From: an uncultured Verrucomicrobiae bacterium
GTDB lineage: Bacteria > Verrucomicrobiota > Verrucomicrobiia > Limisphaerales > Palsa-1400
DNA length: 64,000 nt
NCBI GenBank assembly: GCA_963702845.1
Contig: OY969763.1
Span: 3,744,001-3,808,000, forward strand
Direction of reading: 5' to 3'
The translations under genes and the position numbers were made by a program. The notes under the pieces are model-generated. The model was given only the letters and a program-made list of their open reading frames with translations, did no database searches and was not told where the DNA came from. Below are positions 6,530 to 49,748 of the stretch, piece by piece; within the stretch, counting starts at the first letter, position 1, and each line of letters opens with the position of its first letter.

Positions 6530-6600
6530 GTCAGTTCTCAGCAGTCAGTGGTCAGTGGTCAGTAGCAAAAACAACTGACAGCTAACGACAGACAACCGAC
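6530..6600. repeat. Degenerate 7-bp tandem repeat arranged as an inverted pair
   Basis: tcagttc/tcagcag/tcagtgg/tcagtgg/tcagtag followed by the complementary arm aactgac/agctaac/gacagac/aaccgac. Confidence 0.7.
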
Positions 6601-7877: not shown

Positions 7878-7912
7878 AAAAAATTTGTAAGTTGTAAGTT
7901 GTAATTCCCTCG

Positions 7913-15679: not shown

Positions 15680-16768
15680 ATGGAAACGCTCCAAGCTCCA
15701 ACATCCAAGCTCCAAGGAAGCTCCAAACTTCAAGCTTCAACCTCCACCTTCCGATTTGGTGTTTGGAGCTTGAAGTTTCTCTTGATCTTGGTGCTTGGAG
15801 CTTGGAGCTTTTCCGCCTCGGCGCAACCTTTCCATCTCCCCACCGCCAATCACGCTCTCTTCGAAAAAAACGGCGGCGACAAATTTTTCGTAGGCACGAC
15901 CGGCAAACCATGGGAAAGCGGCTGTTTCGGTTGCGTGCGCTCGGACGGCTGGCAAATGCACGAAGGTCTCGATATCAAATGCCTCCAGCGCGACAGACAC
16001 GGCGAACCCACCGATCCAGTCATGGCCACCGCCGAAGGCACCGTCGCATATTTTAGTAACAAACCCGGACTGTCTAATTACGGCCGCTACGTCGTGTTGC
16101 GCCACATTGTCGACGGCATCGAGATCTATTCACTCTATGCACATCTAAGCGCCATCCGCGATGGCTTAAAAATTGGTCAACAAGTCCACACCGGCGAACA
16201 GATTGCCGTGATGGGCCGCACCAGCAACACCCGCGAACGCATCACCAAAGAACGCGCTCACGTCCACTTCGAACTGAATCTCCTCTACAGCGACAACTAC
16301 TCGAACTGGCACAAAAAGAACCTCCCCGGACAACAAAACGACCACGGCGAATGGAACGGCCAGAATCTCGTCGGCATGGATCCCAAGCTGATGCTCCAAG
16401 CCGGGCAAATGCAGGGATCGAAGTTCAATCTCGCGCAATGGATCCAGACCCGCCCCGAACTCCTTCGCGTGCTCGTGCGCAAAACCGATTTCCCATGGCT
16501 CCGTCGCTATCACGCGTTGGTTGTCGAACGCAATTTGGACAAAAAGACGATCGCCGGTTACGAGATCGCCTTTGACTACAACGGACTCCCCTTCCAACTC
16601 ATCCCCCACACCGCCGCCGAAATGAAGAGCGGCTCGAAATATCAACTACTCACCGTCAACGCCGCCGAGTACGCTAAAAATCCGTGCCGCAAATTAGTGA
16701 AGCAACGCGGCTCACGCTGGGAACTCACGAACAAGGGAACGTCGCTACTGGATTTGTTGCTCTATTGA
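15680..16768 (+). CDS. M23 family metallopeptidase
   Basis: HEGLD, YAHL, AHVHFE zinc motifs. Confidence 0.9.
   Translation: METLQAPTSKLQGSSKLQASTSTFRFGVWSLKFLLILVLGAWSFSASAQPFHLPTANHALFEKNGGDKFFVGTTGKPWESGCFGCVRSDGWQMHEGLDIKCLQRDRHGEPTDPVMATAEGTVAYFSNKPGLSNYGRYVVLRHIVDGIEIYSLYAHLSAIRDGLKIGQQVHTGEQIAVMGRTSNTRERITKERAHVHFELNLLYSDNYSNWHKKNLPGQQNDHGEWNGQNLVGMDPKLMLQAGQMQGSKFNLAQWIQTRPELLRVLVRKTDFPWLRRYHALVVERNLDKKTIAGYEIAFDYNGLPFQLIPHTAAEMKSGSKYQLLTVNAAEYAKNPCRKLVKQRGSRWELTNKGTSLLDLLLY
15688..15810. repeat. 7-bp-unit inverted repeat element (aagctcc / ggagctt) inside the 5' end of the M23 ORF
   Basis: Left arm aagctcc/aacatcc/aagctcc/...aaacttc/aagcttc; right arm ggtgttt/ggagctt/gaagttt...ggtgctt/ggagctt/ggagctt. 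Confidence 0.8.
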
Positions 16769-28409: not shown

Positions 28410-28512
28410 TTGACACACCGTAACTTTACTATACAATCCCTTCAGCCGCCGGTCCTTACCGGCACTGGGGACCGTCAAAAATGTGCGACTTTCCCCGGTT
28501 CGTTCTTTGAAA
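28410..28512 (+). promoter_or_regulatory. Stable-RNA-type promoter, hairpin and boxA-like element (locus A)
   Basis: TTGACA 28410-15, 16 bp, TACAAT 28432-37, hairpin 28448-63, CGTTCTTTGAAA 28501-12. Confidence 0.6.
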
Positions 28513-28547
28513 ACCGCACCAAAAGTGCAACTTAATCCCCACCGAAA

Positions 28548-28762
28548 GTGGAACAATGTGCGGGAATGTGGGACAATGTGTGACAATGTGCGACTTTCCC
28601 GTGATATTTTTAGTCCGCATTGCGAGGCCGACGTTCGGCCTTTGACAAAAGTAGAAACATTTCCTTCTACGGTGGCCGCGTGCAAACGCCTCCACTTGGC
28701 AACTAATTGCCGGAAGTAGAAGGAAGTTGCCAGAAGTAGAAACATTCCGACGATATTTTTTC
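28548..28762 (+). repeat. Two 10-bp-period repeat blocks (..caATGTG and ..GAAGT(A/T)G), each followed by GATATTTTT
   Basis: gaacaatgtg cgggaatgtg ggacaatgtg tgacaatgtg cgactttccc; cggaagtaga aggaagttgc cagaagtaga. Confidence 0.8.
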
Positions 28763-45893: not shown

Positions 45894-48095
45894 TTACGGA
45901 GTCTGCTTGGGCGCTTTTATTACATCGCCTTTTGTTGCCTCACCGGCTTGCGACGTTTTGCCGACTCCGATCTTCTTCAGGAACGGCTGGATCGACTCTT
46001 TGCGTCCGAGGAATTTCTCGATGGAAATGTTCACGTCGCGCGAGTCGCCCTGCGCGTAGATTTCGTCGCGAAGACGCATGCCGACATCTTTGTCGAAATA
46101 GCCGTCGGGTGCTTTTTCGAAAACGCTAGCCATGTCGGAGGCGATGGCGTCGGCCCAGGCGTAACCATAATAACCTGCGGCGTAGCCCATCAGGTGACCG
46201 AAGTAGGCGACGAATGCGGTGTCCGGCGGCTCGGGTAAAAAGACTTCGCCTTCGATGCGGTTGGACATGGGCACGACCTGGTCCTTGTTGTCCTCATGGA
46301 TGCGCGTGTGCAGCGCGAGGTCAACGAGGCCGAACGCGAGTTGGCGACGATAGAACGTGCCTTCGGTCGCCATGCGCGCTTCTTTCAGTTTGTCGAGAAT
46401 CGCGGCCGGAATTTTTTTCGACGGGTCACGGTAATCGGCCGCGAAACTGTCCAAAACTTTTTTGTCCCAAACCCAGTTCTCAAGCATTTGCGACGGGGCT
46501 TCGACGAAGTCGCGAGGGACGCTGGTGCCGGCGAAACGGGAGTAGTTGGCGCGCGTCAGGATGGAATGCATGGCGTGGCCGAATTCGTGGAAGATCGTTT
46601 CGACGTCGCGATGTGACATGAGCGAGGGCTTGTCGCCAGAGGGCGATGGGAAGTTGCAAATCAAGGCGACGGTTGGGCGCTGATATAGCCCATTCTCGAG
46701 TTGTTTACCTTCAATGATTCCAAACTGGGCGAAGTGGTTGTATTTGCCTTCGCGCGGGAACATATCGAGGTAAAACAGGCCGAGGGGCTCGCCGGTTTTG
46801 GCGTCGCGGACTCCGTAGAGTTGTAAATCGCCGATCCATTTATACGGCGGCGTCAGCACATCGAATTTCAGACCAAAGATTCTCTGGTAAATGCTGAACA
46901 TACCGTCGACAACGTGTTGGTATGGGAAATAAACTTTAAGCTGTTCAGCATCGATATTGTATTTCTGTTTCTTGAGTTGATTGCTGTAATAGCGCCAATC
47001 CCAGAGGTTGATCTTCGCGTTTTGGTCACCGGTTTCTTTGACTTTCATCGCGCGGAATTCGGCCATCTCAGCGTCGAACTTGGGCTGCAGACCTGTTTTC
47101 AACTTCTCCAAAAAGTCTTCAGCGGTCTTGGCGTTTTTAACCATTTTCGTTTCGGTTTCGTAATCGGCGTAGGTTTTGTAGCCGAGCTTGTGGGCGATGT
47201 CGTCGCGCAGGACTATAATCTGTTGCAGCAACGGAACGTTTTCTTTGCGGGCCAGGTTGTCACGTGCGGTTTCGAGCCTCAGGCGGGTAGCTTCGACTTT
47301 GCAGTTGTCGAGCACGGTTGTGTAGTGCCACGTGATATTCGCCATGACGGCATAGGTCTCATTGCTCTGATTCACGCCCGGCGAATTCAGGAAATCTTCA
47401 GGGACACCGTCGAGTTCGGCTTTGGTGAAGACGATCTTCTTTTGAGCTTTGGTGACGTTGCTCTCGAAATCGGTGGTCAGGCCCGAGAGCTTCTTGCGCA
47501 ATTTCTCCACTTCATCGCGTTGGGGCTTCGGCAATTCCAAACCGGCACGGCGATAATCGCGCATCGTCTCTTTCAGGAGCTTGTTATCTTCGCCTTTGAG
47601 CGTGGGGTGCGTGTCGGCGTAGGCTTTGACTGCTTTATAGACGTCTTCGCGATAGTCGAGGCCGACCATCCACTCTTCGAGGACTTTGATCTGATCCGTT
47701 GCGGCATCGCGAACGGCGGCGTCGGTGCTGGTTTCTTTAATCAGCGACAGGCGATTGGCGGCAGTGCCGATGTCGTAGCCGAGGTCGTCCAAGGCGCGGA
47801 TGGTGTTCTGGAAATTGGCCTCGCCAGGCTGGAGCTTGCCGATTTTGTCCAGCTCTGCGTTGGCGATGTCCATCGTGTGCTTCACCGTGGTGGCGATGGC
47901 GTTTGAGCTCGTCTCGAATTTCGGGACGCTGATAATGGAGTGGAATTGTTTGGCGGCTTTTTCGTAGTTGGCCAAGGTCGGATGTTCTTCCGACGCGAGA
48001 ATGGATTTTGATTCCTGGGCACCGACCATAGAGGTAAAGCAAAGCAGAGCAGCGAGTCCGCATCCGGACCGGCTCAACAATTGTCGTAGTGTCAT
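45894..48095 (-). CDS. M3A family (thimet-type) oligopeptidase with signal peptide
   Basis: FHEFGHAMH, DFVEAPSQMLENW, GYAAGYYGY; ATG 48095. Confidence 0.93.
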   Translation of the reverse strand: MTLRQLLSRSGCGLAALLCFTSMVGAQESKSILASEEHPTLANYEKAAKQFHSIISVPKFETSSNAIATTVKHTMDIANAELDKIGKLQPGEANFQNTIRALDDLGYDIGTAANRLSLIKETSTDAAVRDAATDQIKVLEEWMVGLDYREDVYKAVKAYADTHPTLKGEDNKLLKETMRDYRRAGLELPKPQRDEVEKLRKKLSGLTTDFESNVTKAQKKIVFTKAELDGVPEDFLNSPGVNQSNETYAVMANITWHYTTVLDNCKVEATRLRLETARDNLARKENVPLLQQIIVLRDDIAHKLGYKTYADYETETKMVKNAKTAEDFLEKLKTGLQPKFDAEMAEFRAMKVKETGDQNAKINLWDWRYYSNQLKKQKYNIDAEQLKVYFPYQHVVDGMFSIYQRIFGLKFDVLTPPYKWIGDLQLYGVRDAKTGEPLGLFYLDMFPREGKYNHFAQFGIIEGKQLENGLYQRPTVALICNFPSPSGDKPSLMSHRDVETIFHEFGHAMHSILTRANYSRFAGTSVPRDFVEAPSQMLENWVWDKKVLDSFAADYRDPSKKIPAAILDKLKEARMATEGTFYRRQLAFGLVDLALHTRIHEDNKDQVVPMSNRIEGEVFLPEPPDTAFVAYFGHLMGYAAGYYGYAWADAIASDMASVFEKAPDGYFDKDVGMRLRDEIYAQGDSRDVNISIEKFLGRKESIQPFLKKIGVGKTSQAGEATKGDVIKAPKQTP

Positions 48096-48190
48096 AGGCG
48101 AAAGGATTAAGCTAAATAATAGTTTACGCAAGTGGGACAGGGCCTGAGGGCAGAGCGTTCGAACTAAGGTGAGCTTACCCAAGCAAACAA

Positions 48191-48233
48191 CCTCCCCTCC
48201 CCGGCCCCCTCCTCCAGAGGCGGAGAGGGAGAA
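48191..48233. repeat. CCCTCTCC/GGAGAGGG-class palindromic repeat
   Basis: cctcccctccccggccccctcctccagaggcggagagggagaa. Confidence 0.7.
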
Positions 48234-48240
48234 AAGCGGA

Positions 48241-48750
48241 AAAAAACTACTGCGACTAGGCGCGACCCAGTGCGACTAGGCGCGACCCAGTGCGACTAGG
48301 CGCGACCCAGTGCGACTGGGTGCGACCAGGTGCGACAAACCGATGAGTAGTCGCACCCGAGTCGCAGTTGGGTCGCAGCACCAGTTGAGGGCCGGAAAAA
48401 ACAGTTTTGGTTACCGTTACCTTCGGTTGGTTACCGTTGGTTACCGGGGTCGTCAGTTCGCGCGAAGAGGATTGAGCTGTAACGGCTAAACAATCTTTTA
48501 TTTTGCCGTTAGGAAGTGTTAGCGGGCGATAGCAGGTGTTAGATAACGTTAACGGATTCCACGGCAAAAGGCCGATCAGTGGAGCGGGAATTAAAGGATT
48601 CCTTATTTTTGTGTCAGAAGGTGTCCGAAGGTGACATGTAACGTCGAATGAGTTAACCGCTGAATACGCAGATGGCGCGGAAGGGGGCGGGAAAAAAATG
48701 ATTTTTTTTAAAATCGATATTAACCGGTACAACTCGATACTGCCCGGTAC
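48241..48750 (-). repeat. Five distinct 10-bp-period repeat blocks, each bounded by an A/T tract (locus B)
   Basis: Plus-strand cores: GCGAC x9 (48251-48336, with 3 inverted copies 48350-48377), GTTAC (48409-48446), GTTA (48507-48552), GTG(T/A)C (48611-48635), G(A/G)TA (48716-48750). Confidence 0.85.
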
Positions 48751-48917
48751 GTGTGAGCAAAGGACGCAGAATAAAGCATGAAAGATGAAGTTGAGATAGC
48801 GCCGAAACGGTGAGGATTGACGGGCACACCGCTGGCGTCCGCCTTTGCGCGGCTACGGCGCGACAAGCGAGATTTGTTCGCGGTTTTGTTGCGGGTCGCA
48901 TAGCTGTAAATTTCAGA

Positions 48918-49026
48918 TTTCAAAGATCGCGCTTTAGCGATTCAATTCAGGGCTTCGGAAAGACCTTCTATTGATTCCTACCCAAGTAGGGGTGAAGGAG
49001 TTTACTATAACGTTGCTGTATGTCAA
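48918..49026 (-). promoter_or_regulatory. Stable-RNA-type promoter, hairpin and boxA-like element (locus B)
   Basis: TTGACA 49026-21, 16 bp, TAAACT 49004-48999, hairpin 48977-90, CGATCTTTGAAA 48929-18. Confidence 0.6.
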
Positions 49027-49129
49027 CTATTGAAGCAACGCGTATCCGTCAGCTTGGCCATCGGCCCCGAAAGCGGGAAATCGCTGATTAGTTGTCGATA
49101 CTCAGAACCGACCCGTTTTACGATCTCAA

Positions 49130-49748
49130 TATGTGCTGAACTGTGACGTCGCCCCGCCGTCCGCTGAGGTGACCTCGTTAGCCTTCAGGTCAATAAATCT
49201 CATAAATTCTGTCCGTCACTCGGTTGTAACTGTCGTAATGGTTGCCAGACACACCACCACGAGCTGGCTGTGGCCGATAGCTCGCTGCATTGGTGGCGCA
49301 AACTACCTCAAGCCCAAAATACGGGGTTGAGTGTCCACCAGTCGAATGCATACCGAAAATCCTAATGCGCACAACCACAACCTGAGGCTCATCCTTGAAT
49401 TCTCGCGATAGGGTCGGTGAGTAGTAACGCACCTCCCGCGGCTGGAGTGCTGCCAGTGATGGTGGCAGCGCGTTCGTCGCGCCACGATACCAGTCAAATG
49501 CGCTGTCTCGATGCTGCTCCACGAGTGCATCACACTCTTTTTGTAAAGCGGCCCAACCATCTGCTGACTGAACTCGCTTGATGACCTTCTGTCGCTGCGT
49601 GCGTCGCTCAAGCCAATCTGGTGGCCACGAGTTGAGCAACGACGGCAAGATGAAATAGAGAACGAACAAACCCACCGGTATCCAGAGAATGGAAGGCGAA
49701 CTCTTTTTAGGTGGTAGTAAATCTGCCATGCGCGTAGTGCAGGCTAAC
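49130..49748 (-). mobile_element. Orphan integron-type gene cassette with partial attC
   Basis: GTTAGCCT 11 nt before the ATG and complementary AGGCTAAC 5 nt after the stop, followed by attC-like left arm. Confidence 0.6.
49190..49729 (-). CDS. Hypothetical protein with N-terminal TM helix (cassette ORF)
   Basis: ATG 49729; ILWIPVGLFVLYFIL; no recognised family. Confidence 0.75.
   Translation of the reverse strand: MADLLPPKKSSPSILWIPVGLFVLYFILPSLLNSWPPDWLERRTQRQKVIKRVQSADGWAALQKECDALVEQHRDSAFDWYRGATNALPPSLAALQPREVRYYSPTLSREFKDEPQVVVVRIRIFGMHSTGGHSTPYFGLEVVCATNAASYRPQPARGGVSGNHYDSYNRVTDRIYEIY

Follow-up and report, generated by a model that had tools for sequence, protein, structure and literature searches.

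Promoter-led period-10 repeat arrays in a Verrucomicrobiae genome, their link to small terminase genes and a possible origin in phage packaging sites

Locus B, a unit of a promoter, a boxA-like motif and five short tandem arrays ("bricks") at positions 48240-49026 (minus strand) of the window (the whole stretch of 64,000 nucleotides that was analysed), was found to belong to a genome-wide family of period-10 arrays, some of which lie beside small terminase (TerS) genes and have a counterpart at one end only of transposable phages. The array family is real and is undescribed in the literature searched. Judging from the sequences, we favour on balance the reading that the bricks are captured pac-type sites, since amplified, that act as decoys for phage packaging or redirect it; taken separately, an origin of the arrays in terminase-binding arrays is likely.

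Architecture of locus B

The features of locus B and its surroundings are as follows.

48999..49026, minus strand: promoter of sigma-70 type, from a class specific to the family; conserved spacer motif at 49016-49009
48977..48990, minus strand: short leader hairpin, from sequence and fold
48918..48929, minus strand: putative boxA-like antitermination motif CGATCTTTGAAA, from motif similarity
48653..48901, minus strand: putative leader ORF of 82 codons, with a start common to other family loci
48839..48867, minus strand: REP-like palindrome within the leader, with similar copies elsewhere in the genome
48692..48749, minus strand: brick 1, TACCGG/TATCGA units and an A/T tail; 6 further genome copies
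48589..48636, minus strand: brick 2, TGTCAC/GACACC units; tail like that at a TerS-TerL junction
48486..48551, minus strand: brick 3, TAACAC/TAACG units and an A/T tail; 1 further genome copy
48396..48445, minus strand: brick 4, GGTAAC units and a T tail
48240..48377, minus strand: brick 5, an inverted arm, a 13-nt centre, nine GTCGCA-type units and a T tract
48191..48229, minus strand: dispersed GC-rich hairpin repeat, separate and not array-specific; 12 other genome copies
45894..48095, minus strand: M3 peptidase, a downstream host gene outside the element (PF01432, E=3.5e-121)
28410..28760, plus strand: locus A, the second family member in the window, with the same promoter class and boxA and other bricks

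The promoter (TTGACA-16-TAAACT, 49026-48999) was the sole promoter-like site within 48000-49300, where shuffles gave 0.7, and it is followed by the hairpin and by CGATCTTTGAAA at 48929-48918, which has one mismatch in 12 with the copy in locus A. The distance from the -35 element to the box is 98 in locus B and 92 in locus A. The sequence-only reading, which had reported these elements, their similar spacing and a layout common to both loci with differing arrays, was accurate on all of these points. It had also described five 10-bp-period blocks, each with an A/T tail: the five tailed blocks are present, but brick 5 is a dyad of three inverted units spaced at 11 bp, the 13-nt centre and nine direct units spaced at 10 bp.

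Within the array region, repeated 5-mers at lags of 10, 20 and 30 numbered 21, 56 and 13, compared to 0-6 at other lags and to a mean of 0.6 and a maximum of 7 in shuffles. The lag-5 count was 0 (vs 21 at lag 10), and on this count VIPR was rejected as the identity of the array. Blocks 1 and 3 are degenerate and were missed by Tandem Repeats Finder. The 12-mer CGATCTTTGAAA taken alone, with 4 matches in the window at up to 2 mismatches vs 9.3 expected, was not above chance, and its weight therefore comes from the genome-wide boxA test described below.

The 82-codon leader ORF had no family match. Leader ORFs of varying length read brick 1 in one frame at five loci (48653-48901 in the window and the paralogs at C1 2054506, 2389608, 2702822 and 5140019), and a sixth differs; these ORFs may be a translated leader. 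An Rfam scan of the window returned tRNAs only and no rRNA, and thus an rRNA leader was rejected in spite of the boxA. A CRISPR array was rejected too, as the earlier reading had argued, because a constant repeat with unique spacers is absent. No integrase or replication genes lie beside locus B, and a SaPI- or PICI-type satellite, which would have them in one island with TerS, was rejected; PADLOC gave no convincing match for 15 proteins. Terminons were likewise considered as the identity of the array family and rejected.

A genome-wide family of period-10 arrays

A period-10 scan, which had been proposed as a check, found 149 lag-10 blocks in 107 loci of the 6.03-Mb genome; eight other lags gave 4-45 blocks, and the shuffle gave 2. 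Locus B is therefore not the second of two copies, as first described, but one of 107 period-10 loci. With 40 core families and bricks occurring in differing combinations among these loci, the earlier suggestion of a multi-locus system with variable cargo was upheld. An A/T tract flanks 39% of blocks, compared to 5% of control sites. No shared frame or bendability code was detected over the 40 core families, as the information content was not above that of shuffles.

The array loci are irregularly spaced (median 47 kb, CV 0.79). When the origin was placed by GC skew, 69 polarised blocks were divided 30 vs 39 with respect to the replichores. This absence of orientation bias counts against the partition or replication-oriented role that had been entertained, and KOPS-like polar chromosome sites were rejected on the same grounds. 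Many arrays adjoin apparent core genes, which from the starts of their sequences we take to be recA-, ligase-, smc-, tRNA-synthetase- and ribosomal-protein-like.

Some other repeats and sites were noted. The GC-rich hairpin repeat at 48191..48229 was found in many relatives as well. Period-7 tandem repeats occur in the window at 15688-15810, 6530-6563 and 7885-7904, and lags 7, 14 and 21 represent a separate abundant repeat family in the genome. Both TerS genes and gene-less arrays are also headed by a second leader class, in which a perfect inverted repeat flanks a centre of 5 bases; its sites lie upstream of five TerS-like genes (L001, L002, L003, L009 and L010) and on C1 near 42050 and 4979320. 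Outside this genome, a full brick 5 is carried by a Verrucomicrobiales record (L427). GTCGCAC tandems were found in 80 loci of many phyla, mostly as plain repeats without tails, and no gp27-like gene was near these 80 loci. In one Gemmataceae record (L386), a boxA-like motif is immediately 5′ of a GTCGCAC array, which hints that the layout occurs beyond the phylum.

Exchange of bricks between loci

By blastn, each brick of locus B has one to seven other copies in the genome, in differing combinations, and a single tail of brick 3 was found in congener G002. At one site, upstream of a gene that is presumably hisS from its sequence start, the promoter class and boxA are common to this genome and G002 and the leader hairpins are similar, but the bricks differ. 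This comparison indicates that the bricks are swappable. In one paralog of brick 5 (L497), the core is switched in both the inverted and the direct arms.

In congener G001, murJ is immediately 5′ of the M3 gene and locus B is absent there, and therefore locus B lies within an insertion of about 5 kb, which also carries an ECF sigma gene. A transcript that was only the mRNA leader of the M3 peptidase had been named as a refuting outcome. BoxA was found in 0 of 19 ortholog loci and an array of this kind in none, which together with the absence of locus B from G001 excludes an M3 peptidase leader or riboswitch.

Terminase genes near the arrays

The genome contains 13 gp27-like TerS genes (PF11985, phrog_426), 9 TerS genes of a second family, 7 small HTH genes and 23 large terminase (TerL) genes or pieces, and many of the TerS and TerL genes are paired and lie among host genes. 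Of 24 terminase cassettes, 11 have an array no more than 600 bp away (1.0 for random positions), and 15 of the 107 array loci are within 700 bp of a terminase or related HTH gene (random 1.8, maximum 7); the other 92, including locus B, have no terminase gene near. Five cassettes in prophage-like settings have no array, nor do primase- or helicase-linked TerS cassettes, whereas the array-linked cassettes sit among host genes. The order at TerS-TerL junctions is array, A/T tail and TerL start. The tail of brick 2 matches the tail of one such junction, just before the TerL start codon, and bricks 1, 4 and 5 were found beside no terminase or HTH gene of this genome. The link of locus B itself to packaging sites is indirect.

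The association extends to relatives. A strict lag-10 block was found near 84 of 146 TerS loci, comprising 13 from this genome and a sample of 133 from relatives (about 80 listed loci and others retrieved; 117 of the 133 have at least 600 bases after the stop codon), whereas lags 11, 12 and 13 gave 3, 3 and 0. These arrays adjoin the gene in one of two places, immediately 5′ of its start codon or at its 3′ end. Among metagenome TerS loci, many of them short, 25 of 80 have a lag-10 block. TerS has a TerL neighbour at 57 of 58 viral loci, at 10 of 133 loci of relatives and at 1 of 80 metagenome loci. Genes of the gp27-like type are present in 29 of 30 genomes of the family and in 17 of 121 of the order.

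A predicted structure of one TerS (pLDDT 83) shows three short helices and long helices. Its best fold match was the G20c small terminase, with a middling Z of 6.3 (rmsd 6.6, 91 residues aligned), and NV1 TerS was third; a Foldseek search with the model gave no match at E<=0.001. The assignment of these genes to the gp27-like small terminases draws on the family profile, the HTH and helical fold (of middling Z) and the TerL neighbour in phages. Phased protein-binding sites, putatively bound by this class of protein, are favoured, which agrees with one suggestion of the sequence-only reading.

The arrays could instead be operators only, for TerS-like HTH regulators or DNA organisers that have been domesticated, with the arrays acting as operators or sinks and no packaging today. 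The positions of the arrays at the 5′ or 3′ end of solo TerS genes suit this idea, as do the lack of TerL beside most bacterial TerS copies, the many tails that end in a start codon and the repression by SPP1 TerS of its own promoter (PMC4737164). We regard it as unlikely, because several orphan TerL genes retain Walker and nuclease motifs, bricks 1, 4 and 5 are beside no terminase or HTH gene of their own genome, and the class promoters show no preference for host genes that run in their own direction (52% vs 77% for other promoters; see below).

It would also be conceivable that the arrays are programmed start sites for a gene-transfer agent that the host would build from terminases and head genes of its own genome. 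In favour of this, several intact TerS-TerL pairs lie outside prophages, the median spacing of loci is 47 kb, and there is one head module among host genes (C1:5.240-5.249 Mb; L061, C1:5239999-5250045), which encodes a protease, capsid, adaptor, portal and split TerL. Judged from the head genes alone, this is very unlikely, since a single capsid gene of the L061 family was found in the genome and the TerL is split; moreover, the spacing is irregular and relatives mostly have solo TerS. The head genes of L061 are in an unusual order and have host genes between them, and a piece of TerS lies on the opposite strand. The portal of TerS-carrying transposable phages had no match in the genome. At locus L001 (7668-9035), an aldehyde-dehydrogenase-like gene is joined in frame with an N-terminal stub of TerL and an array.

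Recognition helix and array core

The similarity of array cores was compared with that of the TerS recognition helix, taken as the 7 residues before a conserved Trp, after dereplication of TerS at 80% and with overall identity removed. Core similarity tracked helix similarity for both the 3′ arrays (r=0.37, p=0.0005, n=41) and the 5′ arrays (r=0.22, p=0.01, n=24), in sets that include kin that are not independent. A tree test on 78 rows with the helix masked was not significant, but it had only 5 independent pairs and was underpowered; the changes were 2.3 and 3.3 in the same direction and 0.0 in the opposite direction, for two traits that were both picked after inspection of the data. One TerS locus (L313) has the GTCGCA core of brick 5 within a GTCAAA clade, and its helix is changed.

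The promoter class and boxA

The promoter class with the conserved spacer motif has 70 copies in the genome (4-9 in shuffles), 67 of which are outside long ORFs. Of the 107 array loci, 32 have a boxA-like motif that points into the array, compared to a control mean of 1.7 and a maximum of 5, and 4 have one that points away; similar boxA motifs are present in the rRNA operon of this genome. Around 44 class promoters in non-coding DNA, repeats are found downstream in 68% and upstream in 9%, boxA in 57% and a co-directional next gene in 52%, whereas for 164 other TTGAC-TAnnnT sites the values are 7, 9, 4 and 77%, respectively. Therefore, the class promoter appears to serve the array and not the neighbouring gene, because the repeats lie downstream and the next gene is co-directional in only 52%. 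A boxA-like motif was also seen upstream of a sequence near G000:C1 4908240 (minus strand) that we presume to resemble a cobalamin riboswitch.

The class is narrowly distributed: this genome has 23 exact matches, none of 300 genomes of the phylum has more than 2, and 3 of 30 genomes of the family contain it. Among 139 loci with the promoter pattern in viral contigs and other genomes of the phylum, downstream arrays were absent except at a locus of this genome itself. Such a distribution would be expected if the arrays were selfish or relic repeats, that is, decayed ends of terminase cassettes that were copied and shuffled at intergenic hot spots with no benefit to the host; many array copies do end in truncated TerS or TerL stubs, unrelated REP-like repeats occupy the same sites, and locus B is missing from its place in G001. 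We nevertheless consider this explanation improbable, because near-consensus promoters and boxA have been retained facing the arrays (68% vs 9% upstream; boxA 57% vs 4%), both arms of the brick 5 paralog carry a changed core, and gp27-like genes persist in 29 of 30 genomes of the family.

The orientation of promoter and boxA toward the arrays also raises the idea of a non-coding RNA sponge or scaffold, with an antiterminated transcript as the active molecule. The locus B region folds better than shuffles (z=-5.4), and boxA is reported to protect CRISPR transcripts as well (10.64898/2026.07.09.737519). However, no Rfam family was matched, the pair counts of brick 5 over 10 copies were not above those of shuffles, the fixed-length centre and unequal 11/10 spacing fit a DNA site, and the phage counterpart is at a genome end outside genes, and we judge such a sponge or scaffold to be very unlikely. 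For the reading of the bricks as captured pac-type sites, the promoter and boxA are the least explained part.

A decamer array at one end of transposable phages

Gp27-like TerS is encoded on 58 viral contigs, and in two annotated contigs TerS, TerL and a Mu-type portal are consecutive, which is the gene order reported at the left end of KS10 (PMC2628397). No strict array was found beside TerS in the 58 viral loci. When a matrix built from the bacterial arrays was applied to 42 viral contigs (after removal of 5 duplicates and of those that were too short), its best match was in the 1-kb phage-end window for 11, compared to 3.0 expected (P=3e-4). Control matrices with periods of 9, 11 and 12 gave 5, 4 and 2, and the other strand gave 7 with low scores. 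The matches, mainly on one strand, are 3-4 kb past TerS and near the end of the contig or prophage; several of the contigs cannot show the phage end because they are cut at the portal gene. At 7 opposite phage ends the scores were at most 8.5; three of these ends show the doubled end site inverted, and two may stop short. A phased decamer array is therefore present at one phage end only.

The cultured phages B3 and KS10 were tested after the environmental set, and both were positive. In B3, the best match of the whole 38-kb genome was at bases 32-61 of the left end (L656, minus strand; 11.2 bits, next best 9.1 bits), with a lag-10 peak at the left end and a lag-11 peak at the right. In KS10 (L655:1-70), the two best matches of the first 5.6 kb start at 45 and 65. 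The left-end decamer array of these phages is a candidate pac site that is directly testable. For comparison, we assume that the pac of Mu is near bases 32-54. Mu-like phages have been described as beginning packaging at a set distance from one end (PMC5557969).

In the reverse direction, a matrix from 10 phage ends found 24 sites in this genome, 12 of them within arrays (0.09 expected), a result that is partly circular because the phage units had been chosen with the bacterial-array matrix. Brick 5 scored weakly against the phage-end matrix (7.1 bits, p=0.09), and bricks 1-4 did not match this single matrix. The exact patterns of bricks 1 and 5 were not found in the viral contigs, and that of brick 5 had 0 matches in metagenome contigs. 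Thus, of the match between block cores and phage sequences that had been put forward for checking, only the weak score of brick 5 was obtained. Searches of viral sequences with a single TerS or TerL of this genome found no relatives, and tblastn of one TerS vs cultured phages gave 1 weak match. The transposable nature of the environmental phages is judged from inverted end sites, portal family and gene order; a search for the Mu transposase C-terminal family matched nowhere and was uninformative. A loose regular expression for phage ends performed weakly (20 of 38 vs 63 of 213 windows).

A model for the arrays and its relation to known systems

In the model that we favour, the bricks would copy the binding array that is read by a ring-shaped TerS to start DNA packaging, with the decamers serving as sites for successive HTH domains of the ring, one per helical turn. 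Transposable (Mu/B3/KS10-like) phages would have the original form, a degenerate run of 3-5 decamers just within one genome end, which would be the pac site and be bound by TerS. This bacterial lineage would have captured such arrays with TerS genes, raised the uniformity and number of the units and spread them to about 100 sites, locus B being a gene-less cassette in which a promoter and boxA precede bricks of five specificities. In an infected cell, the terminase of the phage would bind the chromosomal arrays, and heads would fill with host DNA; alternatively, the binder might be a solo TerS of the host, which would recruit the large subunit of the phage and lend its own specificity to the motor. 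Because transposable phages package from copies within the chromosome, terminase could be drawn to host DNA by some 100 strong sites, and the outcome would be a lower infectious yield and transducing particles. Of the options attached to the earlier binding-site reading, a decoy is favoured by the TerS link and the phage-end counterpart, and a partition function is not.

A pure DNA decoy needs no promoter or boxA, yet both point into the arrays. They might license packaging by transcription, as in T7-like phages, or make an RNA. The promoter and boxA might also have been inherited from a promoter-array-terS unit, as at SPP1 pac, which consists of direct repeats over the promoters and start of terS, and where TerS represses those promoters (PMC4737164). 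The arrays resemble the SPP1/SF6 pac with G1P in these direct repeats at the TerS gene promoter or start, in A/T-rich bendable DNA and in the autorepression described there (PMC4737164). However, SPP1 and SF6 have one weakly specific site per phage, whereas here there are about 100 chromosomal sites with cores that follow the helix. Against the model, the in vitro binding of pac by TerS proteins that have been characterised is weak and of low specificity (PMC4737164, PMC9611059).

A close relation is to transposable phages (Mu, B3 and KS10), which have the same gp27 protein family and, in B3, KS10 and environmental phages, a decamer array within one end. In contrast, the arrays described here are chromosomal, uniform and amplified and have many specificities; they do not lie by transposase end sites, and a promoter and boxA often precede them. 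In SaPI island-mediated generalized transduction, a non-phage terminase subunit directs the packaging of host DNA at scattered chromosomal sites (PMC6687093). The mechanism proposed here would share both the non-phage subunit and the scattered sites with this process and with pseudo-pac sites, but most of the loci are without an island, integrase or replication module, and the arrays are modular and multi-unit instead of chance homologs, with several specificities stacked per cassette.

The sequence of promoter, hairpin and boxA ahead of non-coding DNA is like that of rRNA and CRISPR leaders, although neither rRNA nor a repeat-spacer structure is present here. VIPR vrRNA arrays are also short-period tandem arrays, with orphan copies that are used as decoys (10.64898/2026.10.15.759431), but they have a period of 5, a conserved GGY and a hypervariable NN (10.64898/2026.04.26.720920), unlike the near-identical period-10 units and 40 cores found here. 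The periodic clusters in another report are mostly of 5, 18 and 60-79 nt, and the words "terminase" and "boxA" do not occur in the accessible portion of its text (10.64898/2026.10.21.760802). A description of the array family was not found in the literature searched, with most subscription journals and bioRxiv supplements beyond its reach, and the cluster database that accompanies one of the VIPR reports (10.64898/2026.10.15.759431) could hold this family.

The recognition by TerS of its own genome has been called unclear and controversial in a review (PMC9611059). The natural pairs of a TerS helix and a uniform decamer, together with the one-ended array of B3 and KS10, open this recognition to direct tests. 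Should the chromosomal copies act as decoys or redirectors, the resulting strategy of defence or gene transfer would consist largely of non-coding DNA, and for this reason protein-based defence scans would miss it. More tentatively, it is possible that the bricks form a host-encoded, updatable library of phage packaging addresses, in which cassettes acquire and exchange pac-type bricks and, together with solo TerS, divert the heads of transposable phages onto host DNA. Such a library, if real, would be defence and kin gene transfer at once, with one brick per terminase specificity, and would expose a readable helix-to-decamer code for small terminases.

Other decamer tandems in viral contigs

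AATCAAG tandems were found in 45 viral contigs, mostly of one gut phage group and in non-coding DNA. One of these tandems is about 400 bp upstream of a terminase operon and was not counted as support, and PF03237 had no match in 5 records. A common gut phage group (L337-L379, 80-156 kb) has a long and variable AATCAAGG decamer array in non-coding DNA, often at contig breaks, and beside it there is a palindrome that we take to be parS-like.
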